A DNA stretch of 62,847 bases, the filler included, from Reclinomonas americana ATCC 50394 (taxonomy: Eukaryota), in assembly GCA_048213135.1 (NCBI GenBank). It is 14 parts of 14 records of this genome, joined end to end, with 100 filler letters (N's around TTAATTAATTAA, not from the genome) between each part and the next. Parts side by side here need not be neighbours in the genome. Positions count along the whole stretch, not along the records: positions 1 to 4,725 come from AFZH01020658.1; positions 4,826 to 12,566 come from AFZH01020659.1; positions 12,667 to 16,211 come from AFZH01020660.1; positions 16,312 to 29,121 come from AFZH01020661.1; 10 more parts are not named here. One strand, written 5' to 3'. The position numbers and the translations under genes were made by a program. Below, one piece after another: positions 1-36,072 of the stretch (the stretch's first letter is position 1; each line of letters starts with the position of its first letter). The notes beneath the pieces are model-generated. The model was not told the origin of the DNA. It saw nothing but the letters and a program-made list of their open reading frames with translations, and made no database searches.

Positions 1-639
1 TCTGCTGCCACACTCCTGTGCGTGTGCATGTGCGTGCGCGTCTCTCTGTGAGGTGCACGTCTTGTGTAATTGTGTCGAGTGCAACTGCCTCGCGTGCATG
101 CACAGTTCAAACACATCATTCCTCTCTCCTATCCCCCTGTTCCTGCTTCGCCACTCTATCCACTGCCTCTGCGCCCTCCATCTCTCCACTGCGCAACGAC
201 GTTGGGCAGTGTCGCCGCGCAATGTGCACTCGGAAGGGGCGCACGAGTTCGCTTTGGGCAAATTCATCCGAGGCTAATTTCTCTCTCTGTGCTGCAGGCG
301 ACGTTTTCGAGCAAGACAACCATCGCTTTCAAGGATTCCACCGCCATCAACGAGAGCGAGCGCCACGTGACTGCGGACAGCATGGTTAGCGAGAAGGCCA
401 GGTGAGAGAAAGAGAGACCACAAACGTGGTTCCTGCTTGCACATCTCTCATAAGCATGCCTTCCGTCCTCACACTTCTCCCCTTTCCTCGCTTTCAGATT
501 AGACTCTCCCTCATACAGATACGCAGACTCCCGTCTTTCAACCTCGCCCACTCGCCGACACAACGCAACTCGCCTCTGCCTTCCAACCTCCTCATTCACT
601 CACTTCCCCATCGCAATATTCTCCGTGCCTCTTGACCTC

Positions 640-785
640 GACTGGAAGGCCACACTGATCGGGAGATTCAAGTGGCAGTGAAACCCGATGGCCAGCACAT
701 TATGAGTGACAGGTGGGTCAGAACTCGGCGGAGGAGATGTGCCGACTGGAAGGTCACTCGAAGGTGTTGCGTGCAGTGGGCGCGC
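640..785 (+). pseudogene. Degenerate WD40-like fragment
   Basis: RLEGHTDREIQVAVKPDGQHIMS, then EEMCRLEGHSKVLRAV in another frame. These resemble two WD40 repeat starts, but I could not build a clean gene model. Confidence 0.35.
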
Positions 786-943
786 ACTCTTTCTCTCTCT
801 CCCCCCCCTCCTCTCTCTCTCTCACACACACACACTCACTCTGTCATGTACCACTAAGTCCAGGCAGAGAGCGACACCAAACAGAGTGCGTGGTGCAGCA
901 ATTGCAAGCAGCAACACACACTGACACAGCGACATGCGTACGC

Positions 944-1045
944 AATGACAACCCAAGCACAGTCACCAGCAGCGAGAAATCCAACCATGGAATGACAACC
1001 CAAGCACAGTCACCAGCAGCGAGAAATCCAACCATGGAACGACAA
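944..1045. repeat. 47-bp tandem duplication
   Basis: aatgacaacccaagcacagtcaccagcagcgagaaatccaaccatgg at 944-990 and 991-1037, plus the start of a third copy. Confidence 0.9.
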
Positions 1046-1103
1046 ACGCACACGGCAGTGAGGAATGCTCCAAGTATGGTCGGCACTGATGCGTGGGACG
1101 ACT

Positions 1104-1150
<47 letters not shown>

Positions 1151-1463
1151 GGACTGCTGGGGAGCCTTCTAGTGTACAATAGATATAATAGCAGCTAGCG
1201 CTTGCTAATTATGATAACGATTAACTGAGTGAATCAGCCGGGTTTTTGTAAATAACATCCCTGTCAGAGCGTGCGTCATGGAAGCCTCATGTTGTTTCCT
1301 TATATAATCTTGCATCCATATCAGTTCATTGCTTGTCTTCATCTCACTTCTGTCGCCTCCGTTGTTCATCCTTATCGTCCTCGGCCGCTCCTCTCGCCCC
1401 TGCCATCTCCCTCATGATCAAGCTTTGCCGACGACAACCACATAGTCGCATATATACGCACTC

Positions 1464-4445
1464 CTATCCATAGTCATCTTCGAACTCTTCAAGTGACACG
1501 ATCGAGAAGGCTTGGCAGCAACGATCGATACATTCCTCAGTTCAGCTGGTCTCCTACACGACAACACTTGTGTGAAATCCATCAAGGGCCCGCTGCCGCC
1601 TCTGTAGCCTCTCCTGTTCCTGCCGCTGCTGCTGCTGTTCGGCAGCCACGACTTGATCCTTTTGTGGCTCATCTGCAGCTGACGGCTGCTCACGCCGCGT
1701 TGATTCGAGCGTTTTCTGCTGCTCCTGCTGTTGCTGACCCCTTTTCTGTCGCTGCCACGATCTCCACTTGCACAGCAACCACGTCGCCACTTGCACTGTT
1801 ATCAGCCACAGCGGCTCGAGCAGCAACACGTGAAGCACGTCGCCCAGTAGAGACGATGTAGTCTGCAAAGATGCGAGTCAGCAATGAACTACTCAGCTGA
1901 CCAATGGCTCTCTAGAACACTAACTCACCACCGCCATGTCTTCTTCCTGGCTGCGGAATTTCGTGACAGTCGCTACAGTGGCAACCGACATGGCCACAGC
2001 CAAAATCATGCACATGACTCGACCGGCGACCTTGAACGCGAACGGCAAGTTTCGCCGCAGCGCACGGCGCCACAGTTGACCAATGGACGACTGCGTTGAG
2101 TTGCTGGTGTCCACCAGTGCAGAAATCTCCTTGCCGTATGCTGCGCCGTGCGGCAACAACAGTGTGCTCTCGGTGGTGCCACCTCGTCTTTCCACTGACA
2201 CAGCTGCCGCTGCATTGGCGTCGGTCAGAGTCGGGTCAGTTTCGACTGGTTTGGCGCAGTTCACGAAGAGCACGCGATCGAGCACGACCAGCGATGGCGA
2301 CGTCTGCATGCTGAGTACCGGCTGTGGCACATGTAAATGCACAATCGACAACGAGTATTTACAGTTAGCGACCACAGGCACTGGCTTCGAAAGCGATACT
2401 GTGGCCACTGGACTCGCGCACGCAACTGCAGCATATGCCGAGACATCCTGCTCGGCGCGCACAACATGCATTCCGATGCCGAATCCCAGGACAGTGTCAT
2501 GGCCGAGCGCGACGCGTTGCAAATGTACTTCGTTGACAGGCTTGTACGCGTGAGCGGCGGGCTGCAGCATGACCCGGTCAGTCAAGGTCACGACACGGCC
2601 CGCGATACTCTTCCTCTATCATGCTTTCTCTCACTGACGATCAGTTCCCACAGCAACCCATATTGCCTTTGCTTGTCGCTAAATTCTTCCAACTCAACGC
2701 CTTCACATCCGACTCTCATGCCTAACTTCTTCTCCCTGGCGAAGCAAGTACCTCTCCACTTCTAATCTCTCACCAATCCTTGCTTAGCGCTCATTTCTTC
2801 CCGTATCGTTGTCTCCTGTTCTCACATACACTTGTCCCCCAGCTAGCATCTTCTCCTATCACACTACTTTTTACTCCTTGTATCCAATCTTCTCTTCATC
2901 ATGCCGCGCCGTCACTCAAAACTGCTCCTTCACATCTATCTATTGCGCTCTTCGCAATACTACGTTAAGTACATTCCTCTGCATAATGTCGCACATTGCA
3001 CACTCATTCATAAATCCAGCGCAGGCCCACTGATAATTCCTTCAACCCTCTTTCTGCTTCTAACAAGTCCTCTTCAGTGACTTCTCCCTCGCGTTCTTTG
3101 TGCCTCGAGCCCTCTGCACCTTACATACTGCGCCGCCATTTCGTGTGCATGATCTAATAATCTGCATTTGCTCCGCACACGTGTCTTCTTTTCCACTATC
3201 TCTCCCTTCCTCTCCCTCTCTTCCCTCACTTCTTGCCTTTGTCGACTTACCAGAACTTCAACGTCGACCTCTGCCTCACCCCAGGCATGGGCTTCTCGTG
3301 GTCCCGTCTCGGCCGCCATGCTGTTAAACTCAAAGGATTCTGCACTGGAGCCACGGTCGAGGGCCATAATGTCGCTCACACGCGCCGGCCGGCCGAGATC
3401 ATCCCCCGATTGCTGTGACTCGCGCCCGGCACCGGACATGGCCACGTCGTTCTCACTTCCGTAGCGGGCTAAGCCCACACCGTCGACTGACACAAGCAGT
3501 CGCACGGCAACGCGCTCATTCGGCAGTAACGTTGTCGAGCCACGTACTTGTAGCACAGCTTGCCACTCTTCGCACGAAACCAACAACAGCGCTCCGGACC
3601 GAGTGCGACAGCCGGCAGGAATCGACAAAGGTGGATACACGCCCGGCCGGAGGAATACCACACTTGGCATTTCGTGATGATGCTGATCGAATAGGCGCTG
3701 GAGCTCCGCCGGATTCACAAACTTGAAGTCGTCTGAGTGCTTCAGGTGCAGCAACTCCACATCGCTCAGTCGCCGAGCTGAGAACAGCTGCTGGATGCGG
3801 GCCAGCATGTCTGCAAACCAACAATCAGTTCCACTCCTCATGCCAGTGCGACGCTTGCAACTGCCGATGGTAACATTCAAGGCACTCACCGGGAGATTTT
3901 TGCACCGCATCGTTCCACCATTCCACATTTGCATGATGACGCATACGTCGAGAAGTGAATGTGCACACTAGCGCAAAGAAATTATCGCGAACGACGTCAA
4001 ACGATGCCAGCCTCTCCATCCGACCATGGCATTGGGTCTGAGCGAGCGACTGAGAGTAAGCTAACAAGCGCCAGAGTGCAACAGACGTGGCAGTGATACT
4101 GCGGACTCACAATCCAGGCTCGAGCGAACAGGAGGAAGCCGCCAAGTACTCGACCCCGCACAGCCTCGTGTAACGCCAGCTGGAGCCATGTACAAACATC
4201 AGCTCGGCAAGGTTGCGGAGGCACATCGTGCTGCGCAAACACGAAGTCAGACATAAAAGTGTAGTGCACACAATTACGTTCGTGTCAAACGCAACATAGC
4301 CATCATCAGCAAGTGGGTTGTACCACGAAAATACAGACACAAGAGGTTGCCGGGGTGCGGCTGCGCCTCCCTGCACATTCGAAACAACACTGAAACCTGT
4401 GGTCCGGTTTCGCACTGTGTAGAGCCATCCACGTCGCTCACGCAT

Positions 4446-4522
<77 letters not shown>

Positions 4523-4553
4523 TACATATATACATACATACATACATACATAT

Positions 4554-4608
<55 letters not shown>

Positions 4609-4871
4609 GAGGAGAGAGAGAGTAGTAGTGTAGTATAGTACGAGACGACGGTACGTACGTTAGTCGACGACGTCGGTACGGACGGTACGTACGTAACGTA
4701 CGTAACCTAACCCTACCCCGTACCCNNNNNNNNNNNNNNNNNNNNNNNNNNNNNNNNNNNNNNNNNNNNTTAATTAATTAANNNNNNNNNNNNNNNNNNN
4801 NNNNNNNNNNNNNNNNNNNNNNNNNACGACGACGACGACGACGAGTACGTAGTACGTACGGACGAACGACG

Positions 4872-4920
<49 letters not shown>

Positions 4921-7900
4921 AGAGAGATAGTGGTTGGTGATTTCACAGAAGCCGGATATTGCAGCTGCGAGGCTGAGAGTAATCACTCACCCCGCCGCCG
5001 TCACTTCCAGCAGGAGATGGCATTGGTTCATCAACGACTCGTGACGCAGGAGCTTGATTATCAATGGCCAAGGCCTTCGTTTGCGTCAGCAGCACCGATT
5101 CTACACAGGGGTGAGACCATGCGCTGTCATCACGGCTGATTCCACGTCGGGGAGAACGCAACCAAAGTGTTCTGCATCCAGCGCAGCCGAGCCCGATCGA
5201 CGCGGCGTCAGATGGAAGATGCCACCCATGATGATAATTAATGGGAAGGCAACAACAGCACCTGAACAGTGCCGGCGTTTGTCAGGTGATATGCTTGCAT
5301 TAGATTCGTGGCGACGAGCAACGTACCGATAATGGCCACATTGAGAACTTGAATAAGCGTCAACAGCATGCTGCTTGCTGAAGAAGTCGCCACAGCTGCG
5401 TTCACGCAGCACGCACAAACCACATATACCCAGAGCAACTGCGCACGACGCAAGGTGAATTTGCAAACAACACCCACTAGACACCATTACGCGCCCGAGT
5501 TCGGACTTACCAACACCTTGTCTATCCGACGCACGCGTGATGAACGTCCACGCTCAACGGCCGCAGAAACCCACAGATGATCCCGCCACATGGACAACAG
5601 CCATTCTACAACTCGCTCACGCAATGATCGTGTGCGACGAATAGCAATGATCAACCGAACCAACGCCTGGAAGCGGCGGAGAGCAGCTCCAGGGCGGTGC
5701 TGGTTCTCACTATCCGCAACAGGAATCTCTCCTGCTTTCCGTGTCGACGCTGAAGCAGGTGTTGTGGCTAGGGAAGCCAAGGGAATTACATCGTGCCAGC
5801 GCCCAGAGCCTCTGCTCCAACCAGAGTTTGACGCGGCGCCCGGACTCAAAGCACGTTCGGACAGCTGAACGGGCTGATTCCTCTGCAAAGAAAGTGTGAG
5901 AAACAATGAACAGCATGTCACCAACTAACTCTGCCGTACCGCTGACAGTATCTCGTGTCCAAGTGATAGAGAGCGACGGCGCCGACCAAATGCGAATCTC
6001 TCCCGTCGTCGATGCAGAGGCACAGAAGATGCATCTGGCACGGCTGGCACACTGGGCGGAGGCGGCGGGTCCACAGCGACGAGAGCATTCGGCACCGTGG
6101 ACGAATGTGCAGACGCTGCAACATCGACGGCGTCACGATCGACGACGTCGGCATTGGCTCCATTCCGAATATTGCCGCCGAGACTAGGAGGCGTTAGTGG
6201 ATATTCAGGCGGATGAACTACGTTTGGACGAGGTCGACGAGTCCTCCGCTGGCCATCAAAGCGGAGAACAGAATTATCGACGCTTTCCACCGTCTGGCCG
6301 GGGAGGAACAGCGGTCCCTCTTCGTACGTAGTATCACCGGTGGCTGAGACGGGCTCGTCATTCGCAGGCTATTCAATAAATAGAACATTAGAGTCACAAA
6401 TGCGATAGTTCACCGCATGGCAGGCAGAAATGCACTTACCTCCTCAATCGCGCGAGCAAGTGGCGGTAGGTACAAGCGCCGCGATGGCCGACCAGTGGGC
6501 TTGCTCGGCAACACCGACTCGTACGCCTCTTCTGCTTGTACAGTGGACGCAACACCAGGCTGACCGCGCAGAGCGCGCACTACCTCCAGTCCTCTCTTCA
6601 CATGCAGCCAACCTCGCTTGTGCCGAAGTGCTCGCTCTTCCAGTTTCGGACTACACGCATCTGGCGCTCCCACTTGCGGACCCTTCATGAGTTCCGCAGC
6701 AGCAACTTGCTGTGCCGTCACGTCGGCCAGGTGGAGAATGTTGGTCAGACGTGTCTGCTGCAACAATCGTTGCTGTGCATACAGAACAAGCATTCCAGTC
6801 AGCCTCTGAAAATCGGTTCTCGTTCTCAACATATCCTCTACACACCTCAGCGTCGGTGACGCGATCGAGCCTCCATACGACGATGCACGCGGCCATGGCA
6901 AGCACAAAGTACGTACTCAACAGCATGAACGTCGGACTGAGGAACAAGCTAAGCCGACTGCCTACGCCAATAAATGTAGAGCCACCGGCAAAAAAGGTGA
7001 AGCCCGGCACAATCGACAAGTCCAGTGTCTGTGCGCACAAGGAGACTGTGAGCCATGTGGTGTGCGTGAAGGGCCGTCTCACAACGGTGGAGACGAACAA
7101 AATCAGTGAGATGAGTGGTGGCACAGTACACGCCAGACACCTGTATCGACAAGCAGTACACATGGGTGAGTTGGGAATAGCACCGGACTTGCACACATGC
7201 AATCATCGACGAACATGCGGCTTCTCTCCACGAGCAATCGGATCCACCAGCAAGTACGTGCTCAACCCGCTGGCGCTCACTCGATTTCCAGTTTTGCACA
7301 CGTCGCGCGCAACGCACAGCGGAATCCAAGTATTCGGCACTTCCAGTACTGTCGGTGACTGGGTGGTTACATTGAAAACGTACTCGCTCGCAACTGTGTG
7401 CACGATGTACGTCAGAGATATGGTGCAACACCACGCATAACCGATTGTGTGCACCTGACTGCGAACAGTTCTGCATCATGCACATGGCGATGTTGGAGAG
7501 TGTCGAATTGTACTTGCGCACGGTGGTTTGCCACTCAGGAACAATCAGAACCATCGGTTCCGGTTCATCCTGTACTCCCACTGCCGCACGGTAACTCTAC
7601 ATCGAGGAAATATAGACGCTCAGAGCTGAGAACAAACAAGAACGACAGTGCACATGCTGAGGATACTACCTGGATGCTAAAAGAATACACCTTGACCGGC
7701 GCCGATTGCTTGCCGTAATCATTGGTGGCGTTGATAATGGGCGCGCCCTTGAAACCCACCTATTCGTCCAGGGACATACTCTGGTGTCAAAACACAGCAT
7801 CGTCAAGGTATGAGACAACCATTCGACGGCGTACCTCCACGAGCGCGTAAAACAGGTCCTCCGAACCTGCAAAGCAAATATGTTGAGAACACAAAAACCA

Positions 7901-10900
7901 TCGCTGTCGCGTTGTCGACATTCTTCTCAACACAACATACCAGCATAACGCTTGGTGATGCCGTGTGGCAACATAACAAGCGGCGTGCTCAGTTCACTCG
8001 TGCTGTTCAAGTACGCCAACGACTCCACGGTCACTGCAACATGTGCCATCATGAGGCTGACGCAAGAGTGCACCCATGAGGGACACAAAGTCAGCAAGAC
8101 CGGCTCTCACCAGAGTACACTCCGCTCGTCGTCGAGGTCACTGCCGGATCAAGCTTCTGAGCACGCAAGGTGAATGACGGTGTATCGACTTCGACCGCGC
8201 CTTGCTTGCCCGTCTGCGCTCAGCCAACCCAATCATGGAGAGTCAGTGGCAGAATGACTCCTTGGCACACTGCATTCGCAACACACACCATGCTTGCTAC
8301 GGTACGATGAGCAATAGCGTTGATCACCGGCTCCAGCGTACACTGAATGGCAGCCATGTCCTCCACATCTGCCGACGGAAGCGCAAGCATGCCGGATACG
8401 GCTTCGGCGAACGACTGCAGAGGACAACCGCAGGAATTCTCAGCTATTGAAGTAAGTGGGGGTCAATCGTGCTCAACAACAAATGACCACAGAACTGTCA
8501 AGGCGCTAGCCGAAGTGTAGGTGGCCAAATTCTGCGCTACATTCTGCGCAGCCGCCGCTAGCGCTTGTCGCGAAGATTTCGTCTCTTCCACAGGCAGTGC
8601 AGAAGTCGCCTGCATGTATCGACACAGCCATGTGAGCAGCTGAAGCACAATCACTGACTGAAGAGGCAGCGAGGCGGCTCACGTTTGTGATGGAACTCAT
8701 CACGTTGGCAAATAACTGCACCCCGAGGCCCGAGTCGCCAATCTTGGTGCTTGCCAACTGGACGACCTCAGTCATTCGTTCGAGCGTGGACAGAGTGACA
8801 GCTAGCCACGCGCAAGTAAGTCCGCGGAGTGAATACCACTCCTGATAATTCATCCACAGCTGACGCAACATGAGGTAGACGAGCTGCTACTCGTCGAGTT
8901 GGAGAACGACGAAGAGGACTGCTGCGTCAAGATCGACACCGATGTGCTGACCGTGCTCAGTGCCGCCAGTGCACCACCTGACGTCTGCACAGGCATCAAC
9001 CACGAACGCAGAAAGATTGTGAATTTCACAGCGGACTGTGCGCGAGACTCTTTCTGCCGTTGATACGCGGCAAACGTACCGTGACGTTAGCTGAGGTTAC
9101 TGATGACAAAAGTGACGTGACAGTGGCTTGCGCCTGCATGGCGTCGGCGAACGCCTTGTGCGATAATTGCACTACAGTTGCAACCGACGTCCTTTGCACA
9201 GTCACAGTCCCGTATTAGTTAGAACATTAACAACGCCCGTTCGCATGCAGGCGACAAACACACACCTTGCACCCTCCGAATCTGTGGCAGTCACACCGAC
9301 GACGACAGCCTCTTGACCCACTGATCCCAAGAACTGAAGCAGGACGTTACTAACCGACGACGACGTGCCCGACGACAAGGCCAGCTGCAACACAACGGGT
9401 TGAGATGCACAGCAAGTCCTTATATTCCAGCAAACACACTTGCAGCCGCAACTGTTTGATTCGACGCTGAGTCCGTCAGGTAGAACGTGTAGGTGAGTGG
9501 TGCCGTGGAATCGGGGTCAACAAAGCCAGAAGCGCGGATCTCGAACATGGTCTCCAACTCAACACCCGACGTCGGTGTGCACATGATGGTACCGGCCACT
9601 GGCGGTGAATTCACCTCGACAACACCACGCGCCAGACCTGACAGCGCGTGCGGTGTAAGGACGGGCAGGCAACATACAGCTGCCATAAATAAACAAACCG
9701 AAACCCCAAGTCGGGTGCGAGACCCACACTTCGATCTGGTATGCGAAGCCCGGCTGGAATGAGTTGCTCGGAATCGACATGAAGCCAGTGGCTCCTGAAG
9801 ACCACGCAATCGCTGGAACAGAAACCGTTGGAGATCCTTGCCTGGAGATTCTACGACTGTGAGGGTTGATGCGAAGCAGACACACCATGGACACAGACGC
9901 ACCTATGTGTGTATAGCCCCCAGGCATACGATAGCACAGCCACGTCCGACGGAAGCATGCCTCTGGCCACAACATCCACCGTGAGTGGCATGGAGAGATC
10001 GAATTTGCTGGTGAGACTCCCCTGCACACACGTTGTTGTGATTAGTGAGCATTCCTGTGCATACCAACGCAGTCGGTAACCAACAAACGACAGCTAATGA
10101 CGCACTCGTACAAAGGCAAGACCGGTGCCGATGGTGACCGTCTGATTGCCGAATTCTGCAGAAGACTTAATAAGTCCGCGACTAACAGCACGGATGATGA
10201 CAGCAACCACACCTTGGAAAACAAACAGCGTCTGTACAAACTCGCCACCGAGACTGTCTCTCGCACGGATCCTAACTTCGTGCCCGCTTCCGGCCAAGTC
10301 GTCGGCATTGACGACCAAGCTGCTCTCGGTGACGTTAAACATGGTACCGGAGGCTCCACCCACCACCGCAAGAGTGTGCGACTGGCAGCAGTTGGCGTCG
10401 GTCACCGTTAGCGTCCCAATGACAGTGCCTCGGCGAGCGACCGGCGTTGCGTTGTTGACAGGCGGCAGCACGGCAAACGTGTTCTTGGATAGCGCAATGG
10501 CGGATGGAACGACATTGGCTGTGTCGAAGCGACATGACAGCGGGTAAGGTCGCGTGCACAGTGCAAACAAGCAAGGGTAATATGTGCTTCTGACCTTCTG
10601 TGACAACAAAACTCTTCGAAAACGACAGCCCACGCGCATCCGTCACCGTCAAAGTTAAACGCAGATTCAGGCCCTGTGTGGCAGAGCGGACAACCAAATC
10701 GTTGCCAATCAGCGCGAACAAGCCGCCATCGGCACCGCTGCCAATCGCGAACGCTGCGCTTTCGTTGCTGTTTGGATCCGTGTACGATAACTGGCCGACC
10801 ACATTGTTGGCGATGCCTGAGAGAGGCACATACAACAGATTGGACAAGGCGATGTCCATTGGCGCAAAATTCGCTGCGCGCACACACACAAAAGCGCTCG

Positions 10901-12388
10901 TAAGATCAAAGCAGCCAGATAGCAGACGTCTCACAACTTCCGCCTCACCCTCCATGATCATAAAATTTGCAACGACAGACAGGCCTCCCGCATCGGTTGC
11001 TCTGACGTTCACACGCAAGTTCGAGCCGCGAGTGCCAACCCCGGCGATTCGCAGCATGTTGCCGAGCACATCAAACAGTGCAGCATCTGCGCCGCCAACA
11101 ATCGCATACGTGTGTGTGTCACCCACATTCGGATCGATGGCCCGCAGCATTCCCACCGGCTGGAAAGCAATAGCCGTCGGGAACACATACTCATCGCTCG
11201 AAACCGTGACACTTGTCGGTGCGACGTTGACTACACCAAATACAATTAGATGCATATCAACCAAAAATATGTAAAGCGGATGTCGCAACGTACCGTGCAC
11301 GACAACAAGCGTTGCGTCAAATGTCAGACCAGCAGAGTCCGTGACCCGAACAGTGATTGAAATATTCGTCCCTGTCTGCCCGCTGTTTGTGATCCGCAGT
11401 TGGTTGCCGCTAACGTTGAACACCAACACCGCTGCGGCGTTCACGATCGAATACGTGTGTGTGTCACCGACGTTGCCATCCACAGCTGACAGCGTGCCCA
11501 CAACTACATGCGCAGCCGCCGTCGGTGGTGCGTAGGTGTTGGAAGACAGCGATACGGCAGAGGGTGCTACCGGAACTGCCAAGGGCCAACAGATTCATGA
11601 GCGATATTGCAGCTGCACCCCGTGTCCGCACAATGGATACGTACCATGATTGATCGTCAGTTGCTTTGTGAACGACAGGCCAGCGGCATCGACTACGCGG
11701 ATTCGTACAAGAAGATTCGTACCCGTCTGTCCAGCTGCCGTCATTCTCAGCAATGCTCCACTGACATTGAACAGCGCCGCATTGGCACCACCGTTCACGG
11801 TAAACGTGAACGTGTCCGTCACGTTGGCATCCACCGCACTCAACGTCCCGATGACGACATTTGCCACCGCTGTCGGCGGCGAGTATGTCGTCGCAGATAT
11901 GCGGATGTCCGTCGGCGCCACATTCACTAACCAAAAACAACCTTAGCAATCATATAGCAGGGCAATCATAACAAAAGAACACACACCGTCAGTGATTGTG
12001 AACAATTTGTCGAACCAAAGTCCGCCAGAATCCGTGACACGAATCTGTACGGCCAGATTGGTGCCCGTCTGATTCACGTTGACGATACGCAGATTGGTCC
12101 CTGCCACCGAGAACAATGCAGCGTTGGCGCCGCCGTTGACACTATACACCGCCGTGTCGCCCACATTCGGGTCGGTGCAGCTCAGCACGCCGACCACCGT
12201 GTTCGCCATGGAGGTCGGCGGCACATACGTTGAAGCCGACAATGCAATGTCCGTTGGAGCCGCGTTCGCTGCGCAAGGCCGTGTTTCGTGATGAGACAAG
12301 CAGAGGTATGTGCATACAATCATCTTGGAATCGTCCCCTTCCAAGCTAATTCTGCTTTCCGATCCCCACGCGCAGAGTAATCTCTCGC

Positions 12389-12472
<84 letters not shown>

Positions 12473-12769
12473 CGACGTAACGTAACGTACGTACGTACCG
12501 GTTCGTTACGTTACGTACCGTTAACCCGTTACCCGTCCCCCGTACCCGTACCGTACCGTTAACCGTNNNNNNNNNNNNNNNNNNNNNNNNNNNNNNNNNN
12601 NNNNNNNNNNTTAATTAATTAANNNNNNNNNNNNNNNNNNNNNNNNNNNNNNNNNNNNNNNNNNNNTACTAACTAACTACTACTACGTACGTACCGTTCC
12701 CTTACCCTACCGTACTAACTTACTACGTTCCGTTACGTACCTACCCTACCGACCGCGACGAGTACTACT

Positions 12770-12853
<84 letters not shown>

Positions 12854-15800: not shown

Positions 15801-16048
15801 GAGACTGCTTCCGACAATATCAAAGGCCGCAGCATCGGCGCCGCCCACAATTGCGTAGGTGAACGTTTCTTGCGTGTTGCTGTCTGCTGGTGTCAACACG
15901 CCTACCACAGTATTGCTGGACACTGTCGGCACCGTGTATGTTGTGCTCGATAGCGTGATGTCGGTCGGAGCAGTCGGAACTGTGACAACGATACGCCATA
16001 TATACACGGATGAGCATCTGGTCTACAGCAGCCGCGAGAGATAGGGAC

Positions 16049-16106
<58 letters not shown>

Positions 16107-19100: not shown

Positions 19101-22100
19101 GTGCTGGCCGATAGCGCGATACTCGACACCGGCAGTACTTCTGCCTCGAATATGGTGAGTGCGAAGAGAGAATGGAAAACCTGACCAGCCGGGCGCCGAA
19201 CCTTCGTTGATGTAGAATGTTTTCTGAAACACGCTAAAGCCGTCGTTCACCCGCACCGTCACCTCAAGGTTCGATCCAGTCAGTCCGCCAGCAGCACGAG
19301 CCACCAACATATTGCCGGCAACTGTAAATTTGTCAAAGTCCGCTCCACCAACCACGCTGAATGTCGGCGTCTGGCAACAGTTGGCGTCCACCATACTCAA
19401 CGTGCCAATTACTGCATTCATCGCCGCTGGTGGAACATACGTGTTACTTGACAGCACGATGTCTGTCGGCACAGCGTTGACTGACAACGCCAGTAAAAGC
19501 CAGTGAGCATGGCGGATATGCAGACAAACACGCACTGCGCGACTGCGTGAAAACCAGACTCACCCTCATTGACGATGAACGACTTGTCGTAATACACCGA
19601 TGCCATTCCATTGACGGCCGCACGGACAATTACCTGCAATCCGTTGCCGTTGACGCCAGCGTTGGTGATGCGCAGCTGTGTCCCAGATACGTTGAACAGG
19701 ATGCTATTGATGCCGCCCGCAACCGAAAATGTGTATGTCCGTCCATTGACACCGCCCAGCACGGCGAGAGTGCCGACCACCAGGTTCGCGGTCGATGGCG
19801 GCATATAAGTCACGCCCGTCAAAGTGACGTCAACCGCAGTCGTGACTGGCAAGATGATTACATCGACCAAACATCAGCAACTCATACAACAAATAAACAG
19901 GAGAGCGCGGCTATAAACCATCATTAATCGAGAACGTCTTGTCAAACGTCAACATCCCGGCGCCACTGTCCGTCACCCGGACAATAACCGACAGTGCACT
20001 GCCAGTGACACCCGCGTTTGTCACGCGAAGCTGCGTGCCGGAAATGTTGAACAGATTTCCGACCGCGCCACCAACGATAGTGAAAATAAACATTTGACCG
20101 CTGTTTGCGTCAACTGCACCAAGAATGCCGACGACAACATTGGCTGTCGATGGCGCCGCGAACATGTTATTCGACAGTGTAATGTCCGCCGGCGCCACAT
20201 TTGCTGCGCGAGACATAGCAAATCGTCAGCGTTCGTCACATGTGAGATGAACAAGATAGTTCCATCGACAAACCCTCATTGATGGTGAACGCCTTCTCGA
20301 AAAATAACAACCCACGATCAGTTGACCGTACAGTCACAGCCAAGCCGGTGCCGTTCTGTCCACCCAATGTGATGCGCAGCTGGTTGCCTACGACGTTGAA
20401 CATGGCAGCACTTGCGCCGCCAACGATGGTGTACGAAAATGCTTCGTTCGAGTTCGCGTCGGTGGTCGACAGCGTGCCGATGACCATGTTGCTGCTGCTC
20501 GGCGGTACGTACGTCGAAGCTGACAGCACAATGTCGGTCGGCGCAACATTCGCTGCATGAAACAGAAAGCGCGCAAGTCAGAAATCATCATGGTGCTTTT
20601 CGACCGACTCTCACGTCCATTGCGTACCTTCGCTGATCACGAATGTCTTGTCAAACGTCAGCGACCCAGCACCACTGTCTGTTGCGCGTACCACGACTTG
20701 CAGTCGATCTCCACTCTGGCCAGCGACACCGAACCGCAACTGATTGCCAGCAACGTTGAACATACTACTGTCCGCGCCGCCAACAATCGCAAAAGTGAAT
20801 GTCTGGCCACTGTTCCTGTCGAACGCCGACAGCGTGCCCACTGCCATGTTGACTGCGGTGGGCGGCGAATACGAAGACGCAGAGAGAACAATGTCTGTCG
20901 GCGGCACATTCACTGGCACGAAGATACGAAGTTGGAAAAAGAGAGACTCCAAGCATTGCGCTTTCTCAGGCGTACCTTCGCTGATGGTAAACGTCTTGTC
21001 AAAGGACAGCAGGCCGAGCCCATTGTCCGTCGTCCGCACCGTCACTTGCAGTCCAGTACCATTCTGACCAGCAGCGATGAAACGAAGCTGCGTGCCAGCA
21101 ATGTTGAACTTGACTGCGTCCGCACCACCCACAATGGTGTACGTGAATGACTGCCCCGAGTTTGCATCCGTGGTCGACAGCACGCCCACGGTCATGTCCA
21201 CGGCTGTCGGCGGAGAGTACATTGTTGATGACAGAAAGATATTGGTCGGAGCGACGTTAACTGCGTCGATGACGAGGAAATAATGAGGAGTTTCATCAAA
21301 CGCATAGAGGAAATGACGATCGCGGACTGCGCATGCGACGCAACTCTCGTTGATAATGAATGTCCTGTCAAAGAATAGCGATCCGCTACCATTGTCGGTG
21401 GTGCGAACAGTAACCACCAAGCCATCGCCTGTCTGCCCGGCAGCACTGATGCGTAGTTGGTTGCCAAGAATGTTGAATAGTGCCGCATTCGCACCGCCCA
21501 CAATTGTGTAGGTAAAAGTCTGGCAAGAGTTGACATCAGTCGTCGACAGGCTGCCAACAATCATGTTGGCCGTGCTCGGGGGCGCGTAGGCTGCAACCGA
21601 GAGAGCGATATCCGAGGGTGCGACATTGACTGCAAAGCCGCAAGCCAATTAGTGAACAACTCGAAGTAGACATACGCATGTGCACAATACAACGCACCCT
21701 CGTCGACTGTGAACATTTTGTCGAAGAACAGCGATCCGCTGCCGCTGTCCGTTGCCCGTACAATCACCTGGTACCCGTTGCCGGTGACGCCGGCTGCCGA
21801 GATGCGCAGCTGAGCGCCAGAGATGTTAAACATGGCTGCATCCGTTCCGCCGACAATAGTGTACGAGAAGGACTGCGCCGAGTTGGCGTCCGTGGTCGAC
21901 AGAGTACCGACAACAAGGTTTGCAGAGGCAGATGGTGGCGTATACGTTGTCGATGACACCACAATGTCCGTCGGGGCCACATTCACTGCACAACAGAAAT
22001 CAGCGTGCGAATCGCGAACAGCAGCAAGCGGCGGCAGCGAGAAAAGAAACAGACCCTCGTTGATGGTAAATGTCTTGTCAAAAGACAGTGGCCCGCTGCC

Positions 22101-25100
22101 ATTGTCCGTCGATCGCACAATCACCACAAGTCCCGTTCCATTCGTTCCGGCTGATGTGATGCGTAGCTGCGCACCGGAGATGTTGAACATGGCTGCGTTT
22201 GTTCCACCGACGATTGTGTACGTGAATGACTGGCCCGAATTCGCGTCCGTTGTCGACAGCGTGCCCACCACAAGGTTGGCAGTAGTCGGCGGTGTGTATG
22301 TCGTGGCCGAGAGCACTATGTCGGTCGGTGCCACATTCACTGTACAGCAGTAGAGTGGTGGGGAGATGAGAGCACATGTGACCTCACAAAGAGAAAATGC
22401 ACAGAAAGCACACCTTCGTTGATGGTAAAAGACTTGTCGAAGAACAAGGCCGGAGCACCATCGTCAGCGGTGCGCACGGTCACCACCAACCCGGATCCAT
22501 TCTGTCCTGCTACTGTCATCCGTAGCTGCGCGCCAGAAATGTTGAACGCGGCCGCGTTCGATCCACCCACAATCGTATACGTGAATGACTGGTCCGTGTT
22601 CTTGTCTATGGTCGACAAGTTGCCAACTACCATGTTGACCGTGGTCGGTGGCACGTACGCTGCTGAGGATAGCAGCAGGTCACTTGGCGCGACATTCGCT
22701 GCCAGAGAGAGCAAAGAAAGAAACAGACGACGTTGAGCGACTGGCAGAACGCGATTAAGCAGTCGACAACCGCATCCATGCACCTTCGTTGATAGTGAAC
22801 GACTTCTCAAAAAACTGGGATCCGACGCCACTGTCGGTTGACCGTACTGTCACGGACAGGTTGCTACCGCTCTGATTGGCGCCGGTGATGCGCAGTTGCG
22901 AGCCAGAGATGTTGAATAGGGACGCACTCGCTCCACCAACAATGGCGTAGGTGAACGACTGTCCCACATTGGCGTCTGTTGTTGACAGAGTGCCAACCAC
23001 AAGGTTGGCCGTTGTCGGCGGTGTGTATGTCGTCGACGACAACGCAATGTCCGTCGGCGCTACGTTGACTGCGCATGAGTGAAGAGAGTCAGTGAATGTG
23101 AGTAATGAGATACACCTGACAGGATGAAGACAAACCCTCATCGATCGTGAGTGCTCGATCAACATACAGCGCAGGCGCCCCACTGTCCGTGACGCGCACA
23201 ATCACTTGCAGATTGCTGCCGGTTCCGCCGGCGGCAGTCAGGCGCAACTGATTTCCAGAAACGTGAAAGAGTGCCGCGCTGACACCGCCGACAATAGAGA
23301 AGGTGTGCGACTGGCAACAGTTCACATCCACTACCGACATGGTGCCGACAACCATGTTGGCAGTTGATGGAGAAAAATATGTCGTTGCGGTGATGGAAAT
23401 GCTTGACGGGGAAACATTGACTGAACAGCAAAACGAACGTGAGACTCTCCATACCCACCCATCATGAATGAACGAATACGCACCTTCGTTGACAGTGAAC
23501 GTCTTGTCGAAGAATAGTGACCCGCTACCATTGTCCGTCGATCGCACTATCACCACCAGCCCTGTTCCGTTCTGCCCGGCTGTCGTGATGCGCAGCTGCG
23601 CGCCAGAGACATTGAACATGGCCGCACTTGCTCCACCCACAATCGAGTATGTGAACGACTGCCCCGAGTTCGCATCTGCTGTCGAAAAAGTTCCGACGAC
23701 AAGATTTGCAGTAGTAGGTGGCGTATACGTCGTCGATGACAGCACAATGTCGGTTGGGGACACATTGACTGCGCATTGACGCAGATGATTTAGGCTGCGA
23801 AGGTACAACGAAGAACGATGCCAGTTGCCGTACCTTCGTTAATGACTAGGGTCTTGTCGAAGAAAAGCGATCCGATGCCACTATCGGTGGTGCGGACGAT
23901 AATCATCAGTCCATTGCCCGTCTGTCCAGCCGCGGTGATGCGCAGCTGGTCGCCGGAGATGTTGAACAAGGCAGCATTCGCTCCGCCCACAATCGTGTAC
24001 GTGTACGTCTGGCACGAATTCGCGTCCGTCGTTGACAGCGAACCAACAACCATATTAGGTATGGTCGGCGGCGTATACGCTGCCATTGATATCGTGATGT
24101 CCGTGGGCGTGACATTGGCTGCAATCGCGTGTCCTCATGATGAGTGGCCATGCACAAACATAGCAAAAAGCCTACAAACACGCACCTTCGTTGATCGTAA
24201 ATGTCTTCTCGAAAAAAAGCGACCCATTGCCATCGTCCGTCGATCGTACCGTCACCAGCAGCCCCGTTCCATTCTGCCCGGCTGTCGTGATGCGCAGTTG
24301 TGCACCAGAGATATTGAACATGGCTGCATTCGCGCCGCTCACAATCGTGTACGTGTATGTCTGGCACGAGTTGGCGTCCACGGTCGACAGCGAACCGACA
24401 ATCACATTGGCCGCGGTCGGCGGCAAGTACGTCACAGACGAAATCGCAATGTCCGTCGGCGCAACATTCACTACAGAAGAATGTGTTATCAACAGAGAAG
24501 CATACACGCACAAAGCAAGCAACTGACCTTCGTTGATCGTGAATGTCTTGTCAAAGTACAGTGATCCACTGCCACTGTCCGTCGTCCGCACAGTCACAAC
24601 AAGACCTGTTCCATTTTGCCCGGCTGTTGTAATGCGCAGCTGTGCGCCAGAGATGTTGAACATGGCCGCATTCGCTCCGCCCACAATCGTGTACGTGAAC
24701 GTCTGCGCCGAGTTGGCATCCGTCGTTGACAGGCTACCAATCACAAGATTGGCGGTGGTCGGTGGTGTATATGTCACCGACGAAAGCACAACGTCCGTCG
24801 GCGCAAGGTTCACTGCACACGACACGTACGTGAGACATATGATGAGTAAAGTCACTTGCAGATTGCTTGTGGCAACACACCTTCGTTGACTGTGAATGTC
24901 TTGTCGAAGAACAGCGATCCACTGCCGCTGTCAGTCGATCGCACGGTCACTTGATACCCATCACCGATGACACCCGCTGTTGCGATGCGCAGTTGCGCGC
25001 CAGAGATGTTGAACATGGCCGCATTCGCTCCACCAACAATTGTGTACGTGAATGTCTGCGCCGAGTTGGCGTCTGTCGTCGATAGGCTACCAATCACGAG

Positions 25101-28100
25101 ATTGGCAGTGGTTGGTGGTGTGTACGTCGTCGCCGACAGTGCAATGTCTGTCGGTGCGACATTCACTGAACAAAAGAAAACGAGCGAATGAGAACTCACA
25201 GATTGAAAACACGCATCTCCAAGACAGTACGAACCTTCGTTAATCGTAAATGTTTTGTCGAAGAACAGAGGTGATGCACTGGTGTCTGTCGACCGCACAA
25301 TCACCACCAAGCCAGTTCCATTCTGTCCCGCGGCGGTGATTCGCAGCTGCACGCCGGAAATGTTGAACATGGCGGCATTCGCTCCGCCCACGATTGTGTA
25401 CGTGAATGACTGGCCGGTGTTGGCGTCCGTTGTCGACAGCGTACCCACAACATGGTTGGCTGTGGTTGGCGGCACGTACATTGTTGTCGAAAGCGCGATG
25501 TCCGCCGGCGGGACGTTGACTGCAAAGAAGGGAAGCTATCAATGCTTGGAAAACAGAAGAAAAGCTAAGCGATTCCGTATCCGTCTCACTTTCGTTGATG
25601 ACAAGAGTCTTGTCAAAGAACAGCGATCCAGTGCCGCTATCGGTGGTGCGAACAACAACAACAAGTCCATCGCCTGTCTGTCCTGCTGCCGTGATGCGAA
25701 GCTGGTCGCCAAGAATGTTGAACAGAGCCGCATTCGCGCCACCCACAATCGTGTACGTGTATGTCTGGCACGAGTTGGCGTCTGTTGTCGACAGGTTACC
25801 CACAATCATGTTGGCTGTGGCGGGTGGTGTGTACGCTGCCACCGAGATGATGACATCCGTTGGCGCAATATTCGCTGTAGCAGCTCCAGTGAATACACCA
25901 CAGATGCTTACAACAGACTCCCACACGAATGGACACAGAGGAAAGAGAGCTCACTCGCACGCACCTTCGTTGATCGTGAATGTTTTGTCAAAGAACAGCG
26001 ATCCACTGCCACTATCCGTTGATCGAACAATCACCACCAGTCCGGTTCCATTTTGCCCAGCACCCGTGATGCGTAGCTGAGCACCTGAGATGTTGAACAT
26101 GGCTGCATTCGCGCCGCTCACAATCGTGTACGTGTATGTCTGACACGAGTTGACGTCCACGGTGGACAGCATACCAACAACGACATTAGCAGTCGTTGGT
26201 GGTGCATACGTCACCGACGAGAGAACAATGTCGGTTGGAGCAACGTTAACTGCAAACGAGATGAGCACACACACGAGCGAGCATGTCCACAGGCAAGAAA
26301 CAGACCCTCGTCGATCGTGAACGTCTTGTCGAAGAACAGCGATCCAGCGCCATTGTCTGTCGAACGCACAATCACCACCAGTCCTGTGCCGATCTGCCCT
26401 GCTGTTGTGATCCGCAGTTGTGCGCCAGAGATGTTGAACATGACTGCATCGGTTCCGCCAACAATTGTGTACGTGAACGACTGGGCCGAGTTGGCATCTA
26501 TTGTAGACAGCGTGCCGATAACGAGGTTGGCCGTGGTCGGTGGCGTGTACGTAGTTGACGACAGCGCAATATCTGCCGGCGCCAAGTTGACTGAAAGAGA
26601 AGCAAAAGCTGCTGAGACTCGACGAAATGCAGGACATTGCATTGGACAACTACGGAAAAACACACACCTTCGTTGATCGTAAACGTCTTGTCGAAGAACA
26701 AGGGCGACGTGGCACTATCAGTTGACCGAACAATCACAACAAGCCCGGTTCCATTCTGCCCAGCTGTCGTGATGCGCAGCTGCGCACCAGAGATGTTGAA
26801 CATGGCGGCATTCGCTCCGCCCACGATCGTGTACGTGAATGACTGCGCCGAGTTGCCGTCTGTTGTGGACAGAGTGCCGACAACAAGGTTGGCAGTGCTT
26901 GGCGGTGTATACATGGTCGTCGACAGAGTTACGTCCGTTGGTGGAAGATTGGCTGAAGAGAAAGAACACGACAACAACAGTGACCAAAATATCAAGGCGC
27001 GTGAGGACAGCAATGCGTGGCACAAGTGACACACCTTCGTTAATGACAAGCGTCTTGTCAAAGAACAGCGAGCTGCTACCGCTATCGGTGGTACGCACGA
27101 CGACCACCAGTCCGTTGCCGATTTGCCCTGCGGCCGTGATTCGCAACTTGTCGTCGAGAATGTTGAACAGGGCCGCATTCGCACCGCCCACAATCGTGTA
27201 CGTGTATGTCTGGCATGAGTTGGCATCTGTAGTCGAAAGAGTACCGACAACCATGTTGGCCGTAGTCGGCAACGCGTACTGTGTCGAGGACAGAACGATA
27301 TCCGTTGGCCCGACATTGGCTGCGAAAATTGACAGTGAGTAACTCCGTTCAGCTGATCGCAGACAAGCACACAGAAAATACATCGGTACAGCAACACGAT
27401 AAGTAGATATGCAAAAACGCACCCTCGTCGATGGTGAACGTCTTCTCGAAAAACAGCGATCCACTGCCGCTGTCCGTCGATCGTACAATGACCACCAAGC
27501 CAGTACCATTCTGTCCGGCTGTCGTGATGCACAGCTGCGCTCCAGAGATGTTGAACATGGTCGCATTCGCTCCACCAACAATCGTGTATGTGAATGTCTG
27601 CGCCGAGTTGGCGTCCGTGGTCGACAAAGTGCCAACAACAAGGTTGGCAGTTGTCGGCGGCATGTATGTCGCAGACGACAGCGAAATGTCAGTCGGGGTG
27701 ACATTCACTAGATGGCGCAACGAGAAAAGCGAATGACAGAGAATTAGTGAAAGGATCACGCAGAATCACCGTTGATCATGCACGTACCTTCATCAATCGT
27801 GAACGTCTTGTCAAAGAACAACGGCGATGCCCCGTTGTCCGTGGATCGCACTGTGACCACCAGCCCTGTTCCGTTCTGCCCGGCAACCATGATTCGCAGC
27901 TGCGCTCCAGAGATGTTGAACATGGCCGCATTCGCTCCGCCCACAATCGCGTATGTGAACGACTGGGTCGAGTTGGCGTCTGTCGTCGACAACGTGCCCA
28001 CAACGAGGTTGGCAGTGGTCGGCGGTGTGTACGTGGTCGCCGACAACGCAATATCGGTAGGCGCCACATTGACTATCGAGCGAAGGCCATAATTCTGTCA

Positions 28101-29121
28101 ACATGCAGCGAAGTATCAACTAAAATGCTGCTGAATACACACCTTCGTCGATGGTAAATGTCTTGTCGAAGAAGAGTGCACCCGTGCCATTATCTGTCGA
28201 TCGCACTGATACTACCAGCCCTGTTCCGTTCTGCCCTGCAGACGTGATCCGCAGCTGCGCGCCAGAGATGTTGAACATGGCCGCATTTGCTCCGCCCACA
28301 ATTGTGTACGTGAACGTCTGCGCCGAGTTGGCATCGGTCGTGGAGAGACTGCCAATCACGAGGTTGGCGGTCGTCGGCGGTGTGTATGCCGTCGACGACA
28401 TGGAGATATCTGACGGAGGAACATTGGCTGTACAGGCGGCAGAGCGGTTGGCCACATACCGACGCGAACACACACCACACCCACCACCATCATCCAACCT
28501 TCGTCAATGACAAAAATCTTGTCAAAGTATAGCGATCCACTCCCGTTGTCAGTGGTACGCACGATAACAACCAGTCCGTTACCGGTCTGTCCGGCCGTCG
28601 AAATACGAAGCTGGTCGCCAGAAATGTTGAACAGGGCAGCATTGGCACCGCCCACAATCGTATACGTGTACGTCTGACACGAATTGGCATCTGTAGTCAA
28701 CAAGCTTCCCAAAACCATGTTGGCTGTGGCTGGCGGTGCGTATGTCATCGCCGACAAGGAAATGTCCGTTGGCGCAACATTCACTAGGACACTGAATGTA
28801 AGGCTAACAACCGCTAAGAGCAACAGAGCACCAATAAAGCAGCAGACCTTCGGTGACCGTGATCGTCTTGTCGACGAACAGCGATCCGCTGCCATTGTCC
28901 GTCGACCGCACGACAACGACCAATCCAGTTCCATTCTGTCCAGCAGCTGTAATGCGTAGCTGCGTGCCAAGGATGTTGAACATGGCCGCATCGGCACCAC
29001 CCACGATCGAGTACGTGAACGATTGGCCCGAGTTGGCATCCGTCGTCGACAGAGTGCCGATCACCAGGTTTGCTGTTGACGGTGGCGTGTACGTCGTGGC
29101 CGACAGCGCAATGTCGGTCGG
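1464..29121 (-). CDS. Giant multi-exon cadherin-like-repeat / REJ / GPS / polycystin-1-like 5-TM membrane protein (5' end lost in gap; spans 3 internal gaps; over 6,000 aa estimated)
   Basis: GT-AG exons read continuously on the minus strand: >=51 cadherin-like repeats, REJ motif (VNSPPVAGTIMCTPTSGVELETMFEIRASGFVDPD), GPS (VYCATTHLTDF), TM1, PKD1-type HLWVS...SRVRR, TM2/3 (VAFPLIII) and TM4/5 (VLLLEPLWL). The stop is at 1554 or, after one more exon, at 1464. Continuity across the gap at 4726-4825 is inferred from motif order. Confidence 0.8.
7099..7140 (-). other. 42-nt exon carrying the GPS autoproteolysis site (C-A-T-T-H-L|T-D-F)
   Basis: cag|GTG TCT GGC GTG TAC TGT GCC ACC ACT CAT CTC ACT GAT TTT|gt. 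Upstream WREAAC and a downstream hydrophobic helix (FMLLSTYFVLAMAACIVVW) fit the GPS-then-TM1 layout. Confidence 0.8.
9265..9640 (-). other. REJ (PKD/REJ-like) domain core of the giant gene
   Basis: Exons encode GVVEVNSPPVAGTIMCTPTSGVELETMFEIRASGFVDPDSTAPLTYTFY and LSSG...VVVGVTATDSEGA, matching the REJ pattern NxPPxxGxxxxxPxxG..T.F.I...G.xD.D..PL.Y.F. Confidence 0.8.
10213..29121 (-). repeat. Tandem array of >=51 cadherin-like domains (~95 aa), one per exon, separated mostly by ~55-105 nt phase-1 introns
   Basis: Consensus NVAPTDIxLSxTTYxPPTTANxVVGTLSTTDANxxQxFTYTIVGGAxAAxFNISGxQLRITxAGQxGxGLxVxVRxTDxGxGxLFFDKTFTINE. Example: exon 28783-28499 is 285 nt and intron 28847-28784 is GT..AG. I counted 36 repeats in 16344-29121, 9 in 12852-15979 and 6 in 10213-12268. 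Confidence 0.92.
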
Positions 29122-35042: not shown

Positions 35043-35113
35043 TGTGAAGAATGGAGAAGTTGTCACACAGGACGTTTGATTGATTGTGTTCGTTGGTGTG
35101 AGTGTGAGAGAGG

Positions 35114-36041: not shown

Positions 36042-36072
<31 letters not shown>

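Follow-up and report, generated by a model that had tools for sequence, protein, structure and literature searches.

A predicted giant surface protein of Reclinomonas americana with cadherin-fold repeats of bacterial type, a REJ module, a GPS-like motif and five polycystin-1-type helices

The closest described relatives of the gene treated here belong to the polycystin-1 family (PKD1, PKD1L1-3, PKDREJ and the sea-urchin REJ proteins), in which an ectodomain of leucine-rich repeats, lectin and PKD-Ig repeats is followed by a REJ module, a GPS with the HL|T motif, a first transmembrane helix (TM1), a PLAT domain between TM1 and TM2, and then TM2-TM3, TM4-TM5 and TM6-11 with the PKD_channel domain. 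The GPS is a Cys-rich stretch of about 45 residues ending in C-x-C-x-HL|T-x-F, and the GAIN fold comprises about 320 residues, with a helical subdomain A and a beta subdomain B. Among human disease proteins polycystin-1 is a major one, and what its receptor half does is still debated. Cadherin-fold repeats N-terminal to a GPS-type motif are otherwise found in the CELSR/Flamingo adhesion G protein-coupled receptors (GPCRs), and multi-repeat cadherin-fold ectodomains outside animals occur in choanoflagellates and oomycetes (Pythium/Phytophthora). In the present study a joined stretch of DNA of 62,847 bases from Reclinomonas americana ATCC 50394 (GenBank assembly GCA_048213135.1), referred to as the window, was analysed. 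Its minus strand carries what we regard, with somewhat more confidence than doubt, as a single gene of at least about 6000 aa in an intron-rich eukaryote, predicted from the sequence to encode a cell-surface receptor or adhesin with at least 51 cadherin-fold domains, a REJ module, a GAIN-like HL|T region and the first five helices of polycystin-1 type.

Positions are those of the whole joined stretch, in which 14 contigs are separated by 13 spacers (N44-TTAATTAATTAA-N44). The DNA is eukaryotic: it has short GT-AG introns, and Rpb4, a TAF2-like protein and a UvrD-type helicase are represented by pieces on other contigs. The putative gene is spread over four of these contigs (1-4725, 4826-12566, 12667-16211 and 16312-29121), and what the original prediction, made from the sequence alone, had treated as gaps within one sequence are joins between separate contigs, not runs of unknown bases. 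The features named in that prediction are all present, on the minus strand: GVYCATTHLTDF (HLTDF at 7113-7099), HLWVS...SRVRR in exon 5882-5511, VAFPLIII in exon 5261-5163 and VLLLEPLWL in exon 1862-1557 were read directly from the sequence. The parts of the gene are as follows.

16342-29121, minus strand: 36 cadherin-fold repeats (own profile, E 1e-29 to 3e-47; 51-copy alignment A1; structure prediction and matches)
12850-15974, minus strand: nine more diverged cadherin-fold repeats on the next contig (own profile)
10211-12266, minus strand: last six cadherin-fold repeats, on the contig shared with REJ, GPS and TM1-3 (own profile)
9080-10155, minus strand: REJ module of about six exons, 10155-10106, 10054-9930, 9841-9699, 9637-9438, 9384-9266 and 9191-9080 (Pfam, relatives' profile, splice sites)
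8111-8984, minus strand: helical Ser/Ala-rich stretch in four exons, kept in REJ relatives, candidate GAIN subdomain A (positions 277-476 of the relatives' profile match 8987-8115 in order)
7215-8033, minus strand: beta-rich stretch before the GPS in five modelled exons, candidate GAIN subdomain B (dynamic-programming model only)
7099-7140, minus strand: exon with the GPS motif, SGVYCATTHLTDF (sequence reading)
6846-7028, minus strand: stalk, TDFTLDLSIVPGF..., and TM1, LSLFLSPTFMLLSTYFVLAMAACIVVW, at about 6953-6873 (sequence, splice sites, hydropathy 2.23)
5511-6757, minus strand: low-complexity TM1-TM2 loop in exons 6757-6440, 6368-6024 and 5882-5511, ending in the pre-TM2 motif DHLWVSAAVERGRSSRVRRIDKVL (sequence, splice sites)
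5163-5438, minus strand: TM2 exon 5438-5327 and TM3 exon 5261-5163, AVVAFPLIIIMGGIF (manual splice model)
2616-5162, minus strand: TM3-TM4 loop across the join 4726-4825 (exon model unreliable; no Pfam match)
1929-2615, minus strand: open frame ending in TM4, LPFAFKVAGRVMCMILAVAMSVATVATV, at about 2039-1983, with donor GTGAGT at 1928 (sequence)
1554-1862, minus strand: last exon with TM5, LLGDVLHVLLLEPLWLITV, at 1850-1794, a Gln/Glu-rich tail and the stop TAG at 1556-1554 (sequence)

The repeats, each of about 95 aa, extend from 29124 to 10211 on the minus strand (domain E 9e-26 to 3e-47) and were counted with a profile that was seeded with one repeat and iterated over six-frame open reading frames (ORFs) of at least 30 aa in the whole window. 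They are distributed with 36 on contig 16312-29121, nine on 12667-16211 and six on 4826-12566, and the same iterated profile detected none on the plus strand or on the other ten contigs of the window. As the contig end at 29121 truncates the first repeat at position 3 of the profile, the number of 51 is a lower bound. Mostly one repeat is encoded per exon, the commonest exon measuring 285 nt (24 units) with phase-1 boundaries, and the 48 inter-repeat introns that were measured are 56-103 nt long with the donor G|GTGCGT and the acceptor CAG; in the protein, short linkers of the type I-N/D-E-x-N-V-A-P-T stand between the repeats. Both joins inside the array (16212-16311 and 12567-12666) lie in introns and are flanked on both sides by the same microsatellite, (GA)n and (GT)n, respectively, which fits contigs that are true neighbours, with the possible loss of a repeat at these places. 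Owing to the divergence of the repeat DNA, Tandem Repeats Finder recognised no more than 7.6 copies (period 353, 67% matches).

That the repeats are cadherin-like and would model as cadherin-fold domains, as had been predicted, was confirmed by structure prediction. AlphaFold2 with alignment A1 (51 copies) returned a confident model of the repeat (predicted local distance difference test, pLDDT, 94.3; predicted TM-score 0.84), for which every Foldseek row shown was an extracellular cadherin (EC) domain of a cadherin or protocadherin (TM-score 0.55-0.78). An independent structure search yielded cadherin EC domains in 50 of 50 top rows (Z 9.5-11.3, root mean square deviation 2.1-2.9 A), with 88-95 of the 95 residues aligned, and all nine matches of the A1 profile to PDB sequences were protocadherin-15 (best E 0.003). 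By modelled fold, a seven-strand Greek-key beta sandwich of EC type, the repeats are hence assigned to the cadherin superfamily.

In sequence the repeats are of the bacterial and not of the animal type. A library search covering proteins of 180-2000 aa found 614 relatives at E <= 1e-3; the best 120 of them are 33-52% identical over about 97% of the repeat, and most of those 120 listed with a source name are cadherin-domain surface proteins of Rhodopirellula, other Planctomycetes, Bacteroidota and further bacteria, three of which match Pfam PF00028 with E 1e-57 to 1e-115. Apart from the acidic calcium positions, the consensus of the window's repeats nearly superimposes on the one derived from 547 bacterial repeats: DxD is present in 505 of the 547 bacterial repeats but in only three of 45 repeat exons of the window, and LDRE-like and DxND motifs, found in about a fifth of the bacterial repeats (106 and 110, respectively), occur in none of the 45, nor does DxNDN. 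Passages of the Pythium genome paper (PMC2926784) treat LDRE and DxND as the criterion for 'true' cadherins and report that the oomycete proteins keep both, with 2-17 Pfam-significant EC domains. Measured against the criterion in those passages the window's repeats, unlike the oomycete ones, are cadherin-like and not 'true' cadherins, so that of the predicted cadherin identity the fold stands, while membership of the 'true' cadherins is not supported. The window's repeats further differ from the bacterial ones by the gain of N-glycosylation sequons, of which 76 (N-x-S/T) were counted, with a conserved FN[IVL][ST] in 25 of 51 repeats. This conserved sequon stands where the bacterial consensus reads FTIS, and a vicinal Cys-Cys (D-x-N-C-C-Q) occupies the DxD calcium site of the bacterial relatives in 11 of 51 repeats.

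Downstream of the array the predicted REJ module was borne out as well. The ORF 9423-9902 reaches Pfam REJ PF02010 with E 3.9e-12 (46 bits, the gathering cut-off being 25; the match covers positions 298-362 of the 452 in the profile), and the surrounding exons are colinear with the profile of relatives. A HMMER pass of the REJ exon 9438-9638 over 1.84 billion representatives recovered 140 proteins at E <= 1e-3 (best 1.4e-19), listed as one representative per 50% cluster. The relatives' REJ profile (153 aligned rows, own model excluded) matched ten minus-strand ORF pieces in the same order in genome and profile, from 10048-9920 (positions 48-90) to 8198-8115 (449-476), with individual E values from 1e-29 for the seed exon to 0.15; these pieces coincide with exons of a dynamic-programming gene model, and weak matches out of this order also occurred, a few of them in the cadherin array and one at 7687-7580. 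A word-based search with the REJ exon produced a single match of E 1.1, and tblastn of the 140 relatives against 1-10600 found the REJ exon only.

Among these relatives are seven library proteins with REJ, GPS and several helices (P0172, P0235, P0248, P0203, P0236, P0247 and P0156), which share with the window the REJ module, a GPS-type motif, a TM1 at +22 to +45 after HLT, the pre-TM2 motif H-x-W/L-x-S...R..R and TM2. Their TM3, in which a Pro is conserved, is likewise followed by a long loop, by more helices and by a tail. Outside the REJ exon this similarity is detectable by profiles only. The relatives' N-terminal arrays consist of EGF/teneurin, FG-GAP, filamin, TSP1, laminin-G or PF12733 'cadherin-like' domains, and that of the window differs from them. 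Two more proteins of the library, P0138 (4591 aa), with 15 PF12733 'cadherin-like beta sandwich' domains and REJ, and P0131 (6053 aa), with three separate REJ-like stretches, indicate that the family swaps ectodomain modules freely.

The general plan (variable array, REJ, often GPS, several helices) is thus already present in the library and not new, whereas the particular pairing was not seen elsewhere in the sequences searched, which for the repeats were proteins of up to 2000 aa and for REJ one representative per 50% cluster: the window's repeat type was found in none of the 140 REJ relatives, and none of the best 120 of the 614 repeat relatives matched the REJ, GPS, TM2-3 or TM4-5 profiles. 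The excerpts returned by a literature search held no published description of the general plan, nor of a protein with cadherin, REJ and GPS outside animals. We read the architecture as one form of a protist family that has been little described (variable array, REJ, GPS, five helices) and not as a full polycystin. CELSR/Flamingo receptors have in common with it the cadherin-fold repeats before a GPS-type motif, and CELSR1 EC domains are among the structural matches; unlike them, the window has REJ, a polycystin-like membrane part and repeats of non-animal type. The proposed independence of the two combinations gains from the absence of any 7TM family among 59 ORF pieces of 847-11594 scanned with Pfam, and from the repeats being nearest to bacterial proteins.

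The membrane part displays five helices in a 1+2+2 pattern by hydropathy, without a further credible helix between TM3 and TM4. From the exon at 5882, manually chosen splice sites carry the frame on through TM2 and TM3, with hand-checked donors GTAAGT, GTACGT and GTTGCGT, acceptors CAG and the product ...MWRDHLWVSAAVERGRSSRVRRIDKV-LLLWVYVVCACCVNAAV...VLNVAIIGAVVAFPLIIIMGGIF. On this spliced product the TM2-3 profile of the seven relatives scored 21.1 bits (E 3.3e-5 among 2000 shuffles plus window ORFs), a value reached by none of 2000 full shuffles (best 11.9) and none of 2000 block shuffles that kept the hydrophobic pattern (maximum 16.2). When the relatives' seven TM2-3 stretches (alignment A2) were compared with the PDB, the three best matches were polycystin-1 (6a70_B, 8z6f_A and 8z6b_A, E 9.3e-5 to 1.1e-4) and the next had E 0.36; the aligned stretch, HIWLSIWDRPPRSRFTRIQRAT...VVVYPVYLAILFLFR with HIWLSIW..RSRFTRIQR, is what we take to be TM2-TM3 of polycystin-1 just after PLAT. 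By these profiles TM2-TM3 of the window would be the block of the polycystin-1 family, in line with the polycystin-like protein that had been predicted, the link being transitive via the relatives. With phmmer the relatives P0203 and P0235 gave no polycystin match in the PDB, and exon 5511-5882 gave no usable match in the ESM Atlas.

On contig 1 the frame 2615-1929 ends in LPFAFKVAGRVMCMILAVAMSVATV (TM4) and continues after a 66-nt intron with TTSSLLGDVLHVLLLEPLWLITVQ (TM5), which carries an E-P motif, and the stop follows about 80 residues past TM5. The TM4-5 profile of the seven relatives scored 16.1 bits here (E 0.0021; reached by two of 2000 block shuffles), which supports contig 1 as the continuation of the gene. 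About 190 residues before TM4 (1929-2615, minus strand) look beta-rich without a Pfam match, and a small cytoplasmic domain is possible there. In place of the PLAT domain of the polycystin-1 family, the TM1-TM2 loop consists of about 340 low-complexity residues, in which no Pfam family, PLAT included, was found at E <= 0.1 (ORFs 6413-6916, 5928-6368 and 5490-5924). The idea of a polycystin chassis holds for the half with TM1-5 and is not supported for PLAT and the channel half: no match to PKD_channel or PLAT turned up among the 59 ORF pieces, scanned as far as the contig end, and a stop closes the frame downstream of TM5.

At the GPS, HLTDF would be cut between L (7110-7108) and T (7107-7105), the stalk continues from the following exon with TLDLSIVPGF..., and TM1 is placed 38 residues after HLT, inside the range of the relatives. 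In 11 REJ relatives of at least 900 aa, H-L/M-T/S-x-F likewise follows a Cys, several of them sharing the variant C-x-S/T-T-HLT-x-F, and three of 16 long REJ relatives reach Pfam GPS. The region 8984-6846 may adopt a GAIN fold. Passages of PMC3321182 report GAIN domains in the protists Dictyostelium and Tetrahymena (more than eight in the latter) and in all PKD1-related proteins, so that a GAIN domain would be ordinary here. The predicted cleavage motif HL|TDF before TM1 and its relative-like spacing were recovered, while homology to GAIN/GPS beyond a core of 13 residues did not attain significance.

A number of observations weigh against the preferred reading of the gene. None of the 51 single repeats reached the Pfam PF00028 cut-off (28.8 bits), and only seven of them had E <= 1 (best 0.0039), a test of single repeats and not of the summed score of the spliced multi-repeat protein. 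When the GPS regions of 11 relatives were used as a profile, only the core matched, at 9.3 bits, C-A-T-T precedes HLT where C-x-C is usual, and the profile of eight relatives' GAIN regions on the window remained insignificant (9.7 bits, E 0.062, best shuffle 7.8). Pfam GPS was silent on the unspliced pieces, the ORF 7106-7261, whose frame was unchecked, being without a family at E <= 0.1; altogether, the GAIN, GPS and PLAT tests used unspliced ORF pieces or small own profiles. For the helices, no polycystin came up in the PDB when the unspliced ORFs 5490-5924 and 1557-1877 served as phmmer queries, hhalign of the pre-TM2 exon against the relatives' alignment found the expected register without significance (E 0.048, probability 1.1%, 16 columns), and jackhmmer from six relatives' tails recruited nothing in the window. 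The splice junctions are predicted from genomic sequence, those of the TM2-3 and TM4-5 models having been chosen by eye; TM4-5 lie on a separate contig whose adjacency follows from order, strand and matching microsatellite flanks; and neither an N-terminus nor a signal peptide was found.

The alternative that survives best, although we consider it rather unlikely, is a passive surface adhesin or cell-coat protein in which array and REJ bind, a degenerate GPS stays uncleaved and five helices serve as an anchor without force signalling. The missing second Cys of C-x-C and the end of profile support after 13 residues would suit such a protein, as would the lack of PLAT, a channel half or a 7TM part to couple to known effectors, and the repeats have their nearest kin among surface proteins of bacteria. 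Yet the HL|T motif and the TM1 spacing are kept across distant relatives, and in TM2-3 the motifs shared with polycystin-1 show more conservation than an anchor would require.

Contig 1 ends 1.5 kb past the stop, and this leaves room for a full protein of 11 helices like polycystin-1, whose TM6-11 would be encoded past position 1, where the contig ends, or joined on by splicing around the stop at 1556-1554. Hydrophobic stretches do exist in several frames at about 1086-860, and after its GPS the relative P0203 has about nine hydrophobic segments. These stretches, however, adjoin microsatellites, the ORFs 847-1411 show no PKD_channel match, and of the seven relatives, which by hydropathy have about four to six hydrophobic stretches downstream of the GPS (P0203 more), most terminate shortly beyond the final stretch and show no other; PKD_channel or PLAT was found in none of 16 long REJ relatives at E <= 1e-4. 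A full polycystin is accordingly improbable.

Still less credit is given to an assembly artefact or to two neighbouring genes, that is, a cadherin-repeat gene (or a bacterial contaminant) beside an unrelated membrane gene with REJ and GPS. It is true that the window consists of joined contigs whose breaks seem to fall at repeats and microsatellites, that the repeats look bacterial and that transcript linkage is predicted from the genome. Six repeats, REJ, GPS and TM1-3 are, however, together on contig 4826-12566, which makes the fusion independent of scaffolding, and between repeat 51 (end at 10213) and the first REJ-side exon (10155) there is only an in-frame GT-AG intron of 57 nt. The gene model connects repeat 51, REJ, GPS, TM1 and the exon at 5882 in one frame with GT-AG introns of 49-141 nt, and the spliceosomal introns of the repeats have the same donor and acceptor consensus as those of the REJ exons, with canonical splice sites throughout. 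Concerning the modelling itself, first gene models, trained on the codon usage of the repeats, contained some errors and, once self-trained, ran too far, and the automatic exons after 6024 and on contig 1 were dropped for hand-checked splice sites. A stop-free frame of 419 aa at 10338-11594 (minus strand) runs through repeat exons plus the intervening introns.

The repeat copies are old and their protein sequence is under purifying selection. In 23 units, exon identity is 0.69 and intron identity 0.58, against 0.53 in shuffled introns (253 pairs), and nonsynonymous divergence (dN) of 0.22 and synonymous divergence (dS) of 1.5 result in a median dN/dS of 0.14 (222 pairs computable). All 51 repeats fit the profile nearly full-length within open frames; a stop was found in one of 45 automatically bounded exons, which is among several with out-of-frame automatic bounds. 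A decaying or silent repeat-rich pseudogene, for which one could cite that no N-terminus was found and that the gene is known from genomic sequence, is therefore hardly credible given this low dN/dS with saturated dS, the nearly complete repeats and the canonical splice sites.

Returning to the self-cleaving receptor, the cadherin-fold array would form an outside chain that has lost most of the canonical calcium ligands and carries many N-glycosylation sequons, and the membrane part would comprise TM1, TM2-3, a long cytoplasmic loop, TM4-5 and a Gln/Glu-rich cytoplasmic tail. By analogy with polycystin-1 and adhesion GPCRs, self-cleavage at HL|T might take place within the GAIN fold, the long ectodomain staying non-covalently attached. 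Pulling through adhesion to a surface, prey, a mate or matrix could then expose the stalk TDFTLDL... and shift the five-helix bundle with its cytoplasmic loops, and by the same analogy the stalk may act as a tethered ligand once force removes or shifts the ectodomain, the output presumably passing via the large cytoplasmic loops and the Gln/Glu-rich tail. Having neither PLAT nor the channel half, such a protein cannot work exactly like the PC1-PC2 complex. EC domains have a pitch of about 4.5 nm, at which 51 domains in a straight line would by plain arithmetic reach about 230 nm, the original prediction having named more than 200 nm as possible. Without the calcium ligands a stiff rod is less certain, and glycans or the short linkers may stiffen the array instead.

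The array most likely goes back to a cadherin-like unit captured from bacteria, which then multiplied one exon at a time. More tentatively, and with less weight than we would give to an even chance, the gene may belong to an undescribed but widespread family of protist 'half-polycystins' with REJ, GAIN/GPS and five helices but without PLAT and channel half, maybe the self-standing receptor module out of which animal polycystin-1 was assembled, here capped with bacterial cadherin. If so, a cadherin-plus-GPS receptor would have originated independently of animal CELSR, from a cadherin unit that gained introns, was stripped of its calcium sites, became glycosylated and was amplified to at least 51 copies. 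A natural protein with only REJ, GPS and TM1-5 would allow that half of polycystin-1 to be studied alone and would help to date the joining of the polycystin halves. What appears to be a bacterial-type cadherin domain in a eukaryotic secretory protein, with 51 copies that lack the usual calcium ligands and are kept by purifying selection, would also bear on the building of long adhesive or tension-bearing rods and on gene transfer as one route by which eukaryotes acquire adhesion domains.

Several contig ends that adjoin microsatellites carry ACGTACGT-like runs (4660-4725, 4826-4880, 12500-12566, 12667-12760, 16130-16211, 49480-49553 and 49654-49760). These look like read-end artefacts of flow-based sequencing, presumably from the flow order of pyrosequencing, and the last 60-100 bases of the affected contigs are on this account not trustworthy.

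As for the remainder of the window, neither Rfam families nor tRNAs were found in it. A 609-aa ORF at 33250-35079 (plus strand) has no Pfam family, and a search of proteins of 334-1066 aa yielded no relative at E <= 1e-3; this gene is probably specific to the lineage. Another ORF, of 416 aa at 30332-31582 (plus strand) and without a Pfam family, is situated on the contig that adjoins the cut end of the repeat array, and as it is encoded on the opposite strand to the array, its contig is not obviously the carrier of the receptor's 5' end. The only other recognisable genes of the window are a piece of the RNA polymerase subunit Rpb4 (35883-36578, plus strand, E 6.8e-6), a TAF2-like TPR region (41014-41709, minus strand, E 2.1e-6) and a UvrD-type helicase (53338-54046, plus strand, E 8.4e-10 and 2.5e-7).

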